Position numbers and translations under genes: made by a program
Shown here: piece after piece, positions 49,893 through 51,894 of the stretch
How the letters are laid out: every line of letters begins with the position of its first letter
Numbering within the stretch: position 1 is the stretch's first letter
Assembly: GCF_003790525.1 (NCBI RefSeq)
Contig: NZ_CP033635.1
Length of the DNA: 64,000 nt
Reading direction: 5' to 3' (one strand)
Source: Escherichia coli
GTDB taxonomy: Bacteria > Pseudomonadota > Gammaproteobacteria > Enterobacterales > Enterobacteriaceae
The notes under the pieces: generated by a model
Told to the model about the DNA's origin: nothing
The model's database searches: none
Seen by the model: the letters and a program-made list of their open reading frames with translations, nothing else

Positions 49893-50552
49893 TCATGCGG
49901 TCATCCAGTTTTTTAGAATATTCGCCACCACGGGAGCGAAAGGTGCCAGATAACCGTCGACGGGGGTGAGTAATTCGTCGATAACCGCTTGCAGCAGGTC
50001 GTCATCCTCAAGCCCCTCTGAAGGGTCAATGCCATTAGCCCACAGAAGGCTGTCGGAAAGCTGCTTACGTTTTTCAATCAATGCCCGATTATTACGTTCA
50101 CTATCGCCAAGGTTGAGTACCTTAATCGCATCGATAGCTCTCGGCGTCGTCCCTTCAATTCGACCACTGATCTTGAAGATAAACTCGGTTTCACATTCCG
50201 GCATAAGCGGCGTTAACAGCAATGGCTGGTTCTTATGCGAGTCGTCACACTGGCCTTTTGTTTTGCAGCTTGCAACGATATTCGTGAATTCCAGACTGCG
50301 AGCAGGAGCTAAATCCCTGGCTTCGACATGTTCATTAACGGTATCGCGGTTTGTACCTGTCACGCGATCGCAGCAATAAGCACAGAGATAAAATTGCTCC
50401 TGAGCGCACTGCTGGCTGAGATCGCCAACGATATCCCATTTTTTTTGCGCATAAAGTTCCTGAAACCACTGATTGGCATTTTTATCCCGTGGTTTTGCTC
50501 TCACCCACTGTTGCAAACTGGCCGGCGGTTGCCCTTTAGTTATTTCGCGCAT
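49893..50552 (-). CDS. HNH nuclease-domain protein, Septu PtuB-like
   Basis: 219-aa ORF with Cys/His cluster CAYCCDRVTGTNRDTVNEHVEA...ASCKTKGQCDDSHK; overlaps the upstream ATPase gene by 17 nt. Confidence 0.7.
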   Translation of the reverse strand: MREITKGQPPASLQQWVRAKPRDKNANQWFQELYAQKKWDIVGDLSQQCAQEQFYLCAYCCDRVTGTNRDTVNEHVEARDLAPARSLEFTNIVASCKTKGQCDDSHKNQPLLLTPLMPECETEFIFKISGRIEGTTPRAIDAIKVLNLGDSERNNRALIEKRKQLSDSLLWANGIDPSEGLEDDDLLQAVIDELLTPVDGYLAPFAPVVANILKNWMTA

Positions 50553-51894
50553 GTTTAATTTCCTGTTTGCGCAGAAGCATTCTGGCTTTCACCAGTTCAA
50601 GATGGTTTTCAGGAAGTTCCAGGCTTAGCGTATTCAGAAGAGCGTTAGCGTTGATAAAGTCGTTTTTCTGAATCAGATCCAAAAGATCGTTAAGTTTTTC
50701 TGCCACTGTCGCATTGCGAATATCCGTATCCATCACATTCAAAAGCACAGTATTCGCATCTTGCCCATACAGAGACGGGAGCTGCGTTAATTCGCCATTA
50801 TCCAGAGAATAAACCAGCACATCTTTGTAATCACTGATCACTAAAGGAGAGTGGGTTGTTAAGACAAACTGGCAATGTGGGAATGTTGTCGTCAGACGCT
50901 GGATGATTGTACGCTGCCATGTTGGATGCAGGTGCATGTCCACTTCATCAATTAATACAATTCCCTCGCCGTTTAGCGGGTTTTCTAACATCGGGTTCAT
51001 CATTGCCAGGCGGCGAGCAATATCGCCGACTAACGCCATCAGTGATTTTTCACCCTGCGATAATTGCAGCACATTCAGTGTCTGGCCATTTTTATCAATC
51101 GACATATGCAGGCGAGGTTTACGCCTGACGCGTAAGTTGCTGAACCCTGGCATAAAGCGACTAATGGCCGTTCTGACGGCGGTCAACTGGCGATCCCGGG
51201 ACGAGGCCATGATTGCCGTTAATGCATTTAAGACGGTGTTATCGAGATCTATCCTGGTACTGAGCTTATCCAGAACGTCTTGGGGTAAGCCCGATTCATT
51301 TTCTGCATCTTCGCGATTGCGAAACCACTCAAAGAAACGGCGGAAATCAATACCCTGATTCAGGGCGTTATCGTAGCCATCCAGTTGCAAAAAATTATGA
51401 CGTTCTTTTATTTTCAACGGCACATCCAGCACGACACGTTCTACGGGATAGAAGGCGATAAGCGGGAAGGATGCCCCGCTATTCTGGGTGTATTGATCTC
51501 GATAAAACGCAGCCAATTGGCTGGCCTCTTGCAGGCTGGAGGCGGTGGTCGATTTTTTCCCACTGGCCGTTCTGGCAAGCAACCAACGGTAGGGCGTAGC
51601 GGCCTCCGTCGCTGGATGCGTATTCAGTACCTGAAGTTCAATTGTCGCCGAACTCCTACCGTTCAGAATAGCGTCTTCAGGAATAGGGCTACCGTTACCT
51701 TTTTCAGTACGAACTCGGGCAACGAACCAACTCAGGCTGGTTGCCAACGATTTTAATATTGATGTTTTACCTGCACCATTATTACCAATAAAAACGGTCA
51801 CATTGCTCTTGAACTCCTCCACTGGAGCCAGATGAACTTCAAGTTCTTCAAACCGCCCCAGATTAGTGAGCTTAAGCGTGCGGATATTCATCAT
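50536..51894 (-). CDS. ABC/AAA-type ATPase (AAA_15/AAA_21-like), Septu PtuA-like
   Basis: Walker A FIGNNGAGKTSILKSL at the N-terminus; C-terminal Walker B / H-loop VLIDEVDMHLHP ... LTTHSPLV; 452 aa. Confidence 0.75.
   Translation of the reverse strand: MMNIRTLKLTNLGRFEELEVHLAPVEEFKSNVTVFIGNNGAGKTSILKSLATSLSWFVARVRTEKGNGSPIPEDAILNGRSSATIELQVLNTHPATEAATPYRWLLARTASGKKSTTASSLQEASQLAAFYRDQYTQNSGASFPLIAFYPVERVVLDVPLKIKERHNFLQLDGYDNALNQGIDFRRFFEWFRNREDAENESGLPQDVLDKLSTRIDLDNTVLNALTAIMASSRDRQLTAVRTAISRFMPGFSNLRVRRKPRLHMSIDKNGQTLNVLQLSQGEKSLMALVGDIARRLAMMNPMLENPLNGEGIVLIDEVDMHLHPTWQRTIIQRLTTTFPHCQFVLTTHSPLVISDYKDVLVYSLDNGELTQLPSLYGQDANTVLLNVMDTDIRNATVAEKLNDLLDLIQKNDFINANALLNTLSLELPENHLELVKARMLLRKQEIKHARNN

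Follow-up and report, generated by a model that had tools for sequence, protein, structure and literature searches.

Two adjacent, co-oriented open reading frames on the minus strand occupy positions 49893 to 51894 of the 64,000-nucleotide stretch of Escherichia coli DNA analyzed here (referred to as the window). The first, ptuA (50536 to 51894), encodes a 452-amino-acid Septu ABC/SMC-type ATPase, assigned from the ORF list, from PADLOC, Pfam and PDB matches, and from comparison with Septu Ec-B88 of the clinical E. coli strain JBBDAGI-19-0041 (Nat Commun 2026;17:3468, PMC13096335). The second, ptuB (49893 to 50552), encodes a 219-amino-acid Septu HNH-type nuclease, assigned from the ORF list, PADLOC, a profile match and the same comparison. 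The ptuA stop and the ptuB start overlap by 17 nt (50536 to 50552, minus strand), and an AGGA motif lies 9 to 12 nt upstream of the ptuB ATG; translation of the two genes is likely coupled. To the left of the pair lies a StfH/YfcO-family fimbrial adhesin gene (yfcO), which ends at position 49851 and whose stop converges with that of ptuB; to the right lies smrB (51980 to 52531, minus strand). The spacers on these two sides measure 41 bp and 85 bp, respectively. A first-pass annotation of this DNA had described two ORFs with a 17-nt overlap between the yfc fimbrial operon and smrB, and its coordinates agree exactly with the ORF list. It had also described the pair as foreign to the K-12 gene order, and indeed smrB directly follows yfcO in K-12 BW25113, with a 70-bp spacer and without the pair; in APEC O2-211, the yfcO-smrB spacer is 111 bp. 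Window positions 49000 to 53000 are 100% identical to E. coli strain 165, in which RefSeq labels the two proteins (both WP_ entries) "AAA family ATPase" (452 amino acids) and "hypothetical protein" (219 amino acids).

Both spacers contain candidate regulatory features. Between the yfcO and ptuB stops, an inverted repeat (I8, 49862 to 49888) can form a hairpin with an 11-bp stem, with folding energies of -23.4 kcal/mol on the plus strand (z = -3.7) and -16.4 kcal/mol on the minus strand (z = -3.6); none of 200 shuffled sequences (0/200) was equally stable. A terminator scan that relies on T-runs did not score this hairpin, which is likely a bidirectional terminator. The 85-bp spacer between the smrB stop and the ptuA start (51895 to 51979, minus strand) is the presumed native promoter region, and an Ec-B88 clone carrying the same upstream region is expressed from its native promoter (PMC13096335). 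Within this spacer, a sigma-70-like site (CTGACA-18-TAAGAT, 51955 to 51926) is a weak candidate for the ptuA promoter; the promoter scan returned two sites against 4.6 expected, which is not above chance.

The GC content of the islet is 48.1%, mildly lower than the 51 to 54% of its flanks. As the first-pass annotation had noted, neither an integrase nor a tRNA gene is present in the islet or its flanks; the nearest tRNA gene (tRNA-Arg, 32636 to 32710) lies 17 kb away in a separate island. A search for target-site duplications and terminal inverted repeats around the islet returned only short, chance-level repeats, the best of which is the 12-nt sequence TAACCGTCGACG at positions 49951 and 51936, coinciding with no junction. 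Searching the literature for a defense hotspot named at yfcO-smrB gave no relevant result.

The 452-amino-acid protein matches the PADLOC model PtuA1 (PDLC00271) over its full length (E=1.8e-168, 559 bits, model positions 1 to 420 of 421). This is its best PADLOC model; the retron model ATPase_I-A scores 381 bits. Pfam identifies AAA_21, AAA_23, SMC_N and AAA_15 domains. The translation contains an N-terminal Walker A motif (GNNGAGKTS, residues 37 to 45, including K43; 51760 to 51786), an ABC signature (LSQGE, residues 278 to 282; 51049 to 51063), a Walker B motif with D-loop (VLIDEVD, residues 313 to 319, including D316, E317 and D319; 50938 to 50958) and an H-loop (TTHSP, residues 346 to 350, including H348; 50845 to 50859), all on the minus strand, so the N-terminal Walker A and C-terminal Walker B/H-loop seen in the first pass are in place. 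Against the PDB, the best match is the ATPase of retron Ec83 (5e-63), followed by that of retron Ec78 (approximately 1e-46) and the Septu PtuA structure 8ee4 (3.5e-32). The NCBIfam equivalog models for PtuA and PtuB, which are built on retron Ec78 proteins, score below their cutoffs (352 against 500 for PtuA [NF041760] and 93 against 150 for PtuB).

We also considered other defense ATPases that resemble PtuA in having an ABC ATPase fold and in their Walker B/signature region. PARIS AriA matches only residues 217 to 361, with an E value of about 1e-7 (7.6e-8), compared with 5e-63 to 3.5e-32 for the PtuA structures, and the partner of AriA is the TOPRIM protein AriB, whereas the partner of the window PtuA is an HNH protein. 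No OLD or Gabija protein is among the PtuA structure matches at E<=1e-5. We therefore rejected both candidates, and the Septu name proposed in the first pass did not have to give way to either.

The 219-amino-acid protein matches the PADLOC model PtuB1 (PDLC00344), again over the full length (E=5e-95, model positions 1 to 212 of 213), and the two PADLOC matches, whose E values lie well outside anything expected by chance, uphold the reading of the pair as having the PtuA/PtuB architecture of Septu. General-purpose searches recover less of PtuB. Pfam returns no family for it, even at E<=10; TIGR02646 scores 42.3 bits, below its cutoff of 52.15; and the single sequence finds no PDB sequence below E=0.01. 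Among the HMM matches predicted in the first-pass annotation, AAA_15 and AAA_21 were thus recovered in the ATPase, but TIGR02646 and a Pfam HNH domain were not recovered in the nuclease. We aligned PtuB with 23 homologs (52 to 79% identity). Eleven residues (C57, C60, C61, N73, E74, H75, N91, C96, C102, H106 and C120) are invariant in the resulting 24-sequence alignment. They make up the core of an HNH enzyme together with a cluster of cysteines, the central part of which (residues 57 to 106: C57-x2-C60, E74-H75, N91, C96, C102 and H106) is encoded at 50235 to 50384 on the minus strand; the HNH catalytic residues whose absence would have counted against the first reading (H75 and N91) are accordingly retained in all 24 sequences. 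A profile built from this alignment matches the HNH endonuclease of Ec83 (9e8z_E, 4.5e-9), Septu PtuB (8ee7_C, 1.8e-6) and a TIGR02646 chain in 9n69 (2.2e-6). We assign PtuB to the HNH nucleases because the PADLOC models, the profile match to solved PtuB structures and the conserved residues all point to this family.

The pair closely resembles Septu Ec-B88. The Ec-B88 proteins (PtuA, WP_000981116.1; PtuB, WP_016243072.1) have the same lengths as those encoded here, 452 and 219 amino acids, and their key residues carry the same numbering. The Ec-B88 sequences for comparison, those of both proteins and of the opening part of the cloned fragment, came from Supplementary Data 8 of PMC13096335. 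PtuA is identical at 395 of the 399 residues compared, a range that stops short of residues 400 to 452, and PtuB is identical at 218 of 219. In the residues compared, the two alleles differ by five substitutions, four in PtuA (T220A, I228L, Y356C and N366D, window allele to Ec-B88) and one in PtuB (V198I, in the same direction). The four residues that were mutated in Ec-B88 (PtuA K43 and D316; PtuB H75 and N91) are all present in the window pair under identical numbering. In the available part of the Ec-B88 cloned fragment, the first 399 nt correspond to the reverse complement of window positions 51792 to 52190 with four mismatches and span the 3' end of smrB, indicating that Ec-B88 derives from the same smrB-adjacent site. 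By these sequence comparisons, the window pair is an allele of Septu Ec-B88, approximately 99% identical and at the same chromosomal site. The label "Septu-like" used in the first pass can accordingly be sharpened to genuine Septu, and the system is already known: it has a name, and a near-identical allele has been tested experimentally.

The phage range, the phenotypes of four mutants and the cleavage of tRNA-Tyr have all been established with the approximately 99% identical Ec-B88 allele (PMC13096335). Ec-B88 defends mainly against Demerecviridae (T5-like phages); it reduces plating of T4 and gives intermediate protection against T6, and T2 is resistant (PMC13096335). Defense is lost in the PtuA mutants K43A and D316A and in the PtuB mutants H75A and N91A (PMC13096335). 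Infected cells carrying Ec-B88 grow more slowly and yield fewer phages, consistent with abortive infection, and E. coli tRNA-Tyr is cut in its variable loop at C48/A49 solely during infection (PMC13096335). T6 gets past Ec-B88 through amplified copies of the phage's own tRNA-Tyr gene, and supplying extra phage tRNA-Tyr rescues T6 under Ec-B88; a tail sheath mutation that two escapers carried failed to trigger Ec-B88 when tested (PMC13096335).

By analogy, we infer that the window allele works like Ec-B88. The pair very probably works as a type I Septu, stand-alone and of the Ec-B88 type, that protects against phages: a coupled operon yields a complex whose activation by infection leads to tRNA-Tyr cleavage. 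PtuA and PtuB would be made from one operon through translational coupling, and the PtuA C terminus would hold PtuB in a complex, as in the solved PtuAB complexes; in retron Ec78, PtuB is clamped by paired extensions at the C termini of PtuA (PMC12819146). Infection by a T5-like or T-even phage would then activate the complex, a step expected to require ATP binding or hydrolysis by PtuA together with the HNH site of PtuB. The activated complex would cause tRNA-Tyr to be cut in its variable loop, and the resulting loss of this tRNA may stall translation, so that the infected cell grows slowly and phage yield drops in an abortive-infection-like manner.

How PtuAB acts on nucleic acids leaves room for a variant of this reading, in which the main lethal activity of the same pair is nicking or degradation of DNA by PtuB, released when infection lowers ATP, and tRNA-Tyr cleavage is indirect or secondary. 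Stand-alone PtuAB from strain ATCC 25922 reportedly nicks DNA in vitro, an activity reduced by ATP (as cited in PMC12819146), whereas Ec-B88 is associated with tRNA-Tyr cleavage. Ec78 PtuAB likewise nicks supercoiled plasmid in vitro and leaves synthetic RNA and DNA oligonucleotides uncut, and it has been suggested that tRNA fragmentation is possibly downstream of DNA damage (PMC12819146). Against this, Ec-B88 cuts tRNA-Tyr at a defined position and only upon infection, and the rescue of T6 by extra tRNA-Tyr, together with the amplification of the tRNA-Tyr gene in escapers, places tRNA-Tyr loss on the causal path (PMC13096335). We consider DNA damage very unlikely to be the principal activity. 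Given the ATP-inhibited DNA nicking reported for the ATCC 25922 Septu, the tRNA-Tyr cut in the preferred mechanism may be catalyzed by PtuB itself or may follow from DNA damage.

To place the allele among E. coli strains, we considered 5426 complete genomes. The pair is present at a coverage of at least 80% in 183 of these (3.4%), always on the chromosome and in single copy, and 169 genomes carry the pair with both flanks as in the window; in all three of these that were inspected, it lies between yfcO and smrB. A further 475 genomes (approximately 8.8%) match over a short stretch only, and among the matches listed for this class (including Nissle 1917, UTI89 and clone D i14), this stretch is always the last 225 bp of ptuB (49893 to 50117, minus strand), kept elsewhere as non-coding sequence. 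In Nissle 1917, the sole genome of this class in which the site was inspected, the remnant is unannotated and lies between yfcO and smrB. We read it as an apparent deletion scar, such that the pair would once have been present in these lineages. The remaining genomes have no match to the pair, and the site is empty in both of those inspected (K-12 BW25113 and APEC O2-211). The pair is therefore absent from K-12 and from most genomes, as the first-pass annotation had supposed in treating it as less than universal in E. coli.

That annotation had also called the pair inserted and had proposed to define the insertion boundaries by comparing the yfcO-smrB region across genomes. The comparison did not deliver them: occupied and empty spacers do not align, and the boundaries cannot be fixed for that reason. 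A simple insertion does not describe the site adequately. Because there are no repeats and no clean junctions, and because 475 further genomes carry an apparent ptuB scar, the yfcO-smrB locus is instead a presence/decay polymorphism. The fixed site, its three states and the lack of mobility genes suggest transfer by flanking homologous recombination with recurrent loss.

Given this decay, the window allele might itself be an inactive, degenerating copy. Besides the 475 genomes with short matches and the 225-bp scar seen among those listed, the PtuA C terminus and the PtuB N terminus have been lost to a deletion in some genomes; in strain E57, the loss of window positions 50516 to 50702 takes approximately 55 C-terminal residues of PtuA and the first 12 residues of PtuB. 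Both ORFs in the window are full length, however, and retain all the catalytic residues tested in Ec-B88; in the residues available for comparison, the substitutions relative to the active allele number only five and look conservative. The exact PtuB sequence, moreover, represents a cluster of 249 member sequences, and RefSeq annotates both proteins in strain 165 under WP_ accessions. An inactive copy is thus very unlikely.

The closest solved relatives of the window PtuA belong to type I-A retrons, and we weighed whether the pair is a relic of such a retron (Ec78/Eco7- or Ec83-like) that lost its reverse transcriptase and ncRNA and left an orphan effector. The PDB ranking given above, in which the Ec83 and Ec78 ATPases precede the stand-alone Septu PtuA 8ee4, and the 381-bit score of the ATPase_I-A model are in line with this origin, as is the tRNA-Tyr target common to Ec-B88 and retron-Eco7 (PMC13096335). 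The retron PtuAB structures (retron-Eco7/Ec78 and Ec83; PDB 9E8Z, 9KJX and 9VH1, among others) also share the PtuB HNH core with the window protein, and the retron-cleaved site, like that of Ec-B88, is the tRNA-Tyr variable loop (PMC13096335). The architecture argues otherwise. Retron Ec78 PtuA has gained an N-terminal extension, a helical flap and charged loops that bind the reverse transcriptase, ncRNA and msDNA (PMC12819146). Alignments of the window PtuA begin at position 53 of the ATPase_I-A model and at approximately positions 67 to 70 of the Ec83 and Ec78 chains, and thus the N-terminal extension of some 55 to 65 residues that binds reverse transcriptase and ncRNA is absent; an internal segment of approximately 26 residues (Ec83 positions 289 to 316) is missing as well. 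The best PADLOC model remains the full-length Septu PtuA1 at 559 bits.

Nor are the other retron components, namely a reverse transcriptase, ncRNA and msDNA, found at the window pair. The ORF list contains no reverse transcriptase upstream of ptuA, and spacers of 41 and 85 bp leave no room for one. An Rfam scan of the whole 64-kb window returned no retron RNA family at the gathering threshold, only C4, isrK and tRNA, all in an unrelated island. Homologous pairs in Klebsiella, Dickeya and Chrysiogenes likewise lack a reverse transcriptase, and Ec-B88 functions as a two-gene clone (PMC13096335). A retron relic is therefore extremely improbable. The window PtuA has a stand-alone architecture, though it is nearer in sequence to the retron proteins. 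The ATCC 25922 Septu (PDB 8EE4, 8EE7 and 8EEA) is likewise a two-gene ATPase and HNH system without a reverse transcriptase, and its PtuA aligns end to end with the window protein (window residues 6 to 445 with 5 to 458); it is nonetheless distant (E=3.5e-32, 115 bits), and its PtuB is reached solely by the profile (1.8e-6).

These relationships allow a tentative evolutionary reading of the stand-alone Septu identified here. As the nearest stand-alone relative of the retron I-A effector by comparison with solved PtuA structures, with a common tRNA-Tyr target and no retron-binding extension, its clade could possibly represent the ancestral state from which retrons co-opted PtuAB, or else a reversion. 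Such a system would sense phage through an msDNA-independent trigger, and the repeated decay of the locus could reflect a fitness cost of tRNA-Tyr cleavage.

Little in this locus is new at the level of the system, which is named; homologous PtuAB structures have been solved (retron Ec78/Ec83 and ATCC 25922), and a near-identical allele has been tested with phage. What triggers the system, whether it cuts tRNA directly or indirectly and how it is related in evolution to retron I-A are matters for the family as a whole and not particular to the window locus. The practical gain lies in annotation, as RefSeq names the ATPase no more precisely than "AAA family ATPase" and lists the nuclease as "hypothetical protein" or "HNH endonuclease family protein". 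By analogy with Ec-B88, predicted resistance of the strain extends to T5-like phages and to part of the T-even group, a point of relevance to host range in phage therapy. A lesser point, for population genetics, is that the yfcO-smrB spacer offers one fixed site that occurs in three states (intact pair, ptuB scar and no match).

Beyond E. coli, PtuB homologs with 52 to 79% identity are widespread (832 matches at E<=1e-3), and the named sources are mostly Proteobacteria. In Klebsiella aerogenes, Dickeya chrysanthemi and Chrysiogenes arsenatis, an ABC ATPase of 455 to 488 amino acids precedes the PtuB homolog, with no reverse transcriptase, and the 17-nt overlap between the two genes is identical in all three. 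The genomic settings of these pairs vary: those of D. chrysanthemi and C. arsenatis sit among housekeeping genes, and that of K. aerogenes lies inside an operon for type I restriction-modification, with hsdS and hsdR on its two sides.

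Across the complete E. coli genomes searched, 475 match the Septu pair, ptuA-ptuB, over a short stretch only. Among the matches listed, which include Nissle 1917, UTI89, and clone D i14, the sole remnant is the last 225 bp of ptuB (window 49893-50117). We inspected the genomic site of this remnant in Nissle 1917 only, where it lies at locus positions 3001-3225, is unannotated, and is flanked by yfcO on one side and smrB on the other. This ptuB scar between the two genes implies that the Septu pair was once present there and has since been lost.

E. coli E57 carries a different lesion, a deletion of approximately 190 bp within the pair (locus positions 2090-2124, equivalent to window 50516-50702), which removes approximately 55 C-terminal residues of the ATPase PtuA and the first 12 residues of the HNH-type nuclease PtuB. 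In solved complexes, this C-terminal part of PtuA forms a clamp on PtuB. The annotation of E57 still shows two genes; this variant is probably inactive.

The region of the pair also contains a 21-nt direct repeat (81% identity; window 49951-49971 and 51936-51956, 1,985 bp apart) with an exact match of 12 nt, TAACCGTCGACG. The two copies are located inside ptuB, at its 3' end, and in the spacer upstream of ptuA, respectively. The repeat coincides with none of the observed deletion junctions and is probably due to chance.

A homologous ptuA-ptuB pair in Klebsiella aerogenes is located within a type I restriction-modification operon (locus positions 852-8987) with the gene order hsdM, hsdS, ptuA, ptuB, hsdR. 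Its PtuB is 68% identical to that of the window, and the two pairs have in common a 17-nt overlap between ptuA and ptuB.

Elsewhere in the window, a 12.7-kb integrative element (19967-32634) is sited at tRNA-Arg (argW; 32636-32710), with a partial copy of the tRNA 3' end at about 19947-19966. This element has the appearance of a phage satellite; its genes code for a P4-type integrase (31195-32499, minus strand), an Icd-like protein (29282-29809, minus) that overlaps a C4 antisense RNA (29507-29594, Rfam) and adjoins isrK (29620-29701), a large primase (25619-28312, minus; phrog_1139), a second tyrosine recombinase (24612-25652, minus), a P2-family major-capsid-like protein (20820-22232, minus), and a MazF-like toxin (20432-20776, plus). 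The element is absent from strain 165, an E. coli genome identical to the window over 49000-53000, and only 19 of 5,426 complete E. coli genomes cover at least 80% of it. Between mlaA and fadL, the window also encodes a 415-amino-acid "hypothetical protein" (34946-36193, minus), annotated in strain 165 as AWB10_RS29795.
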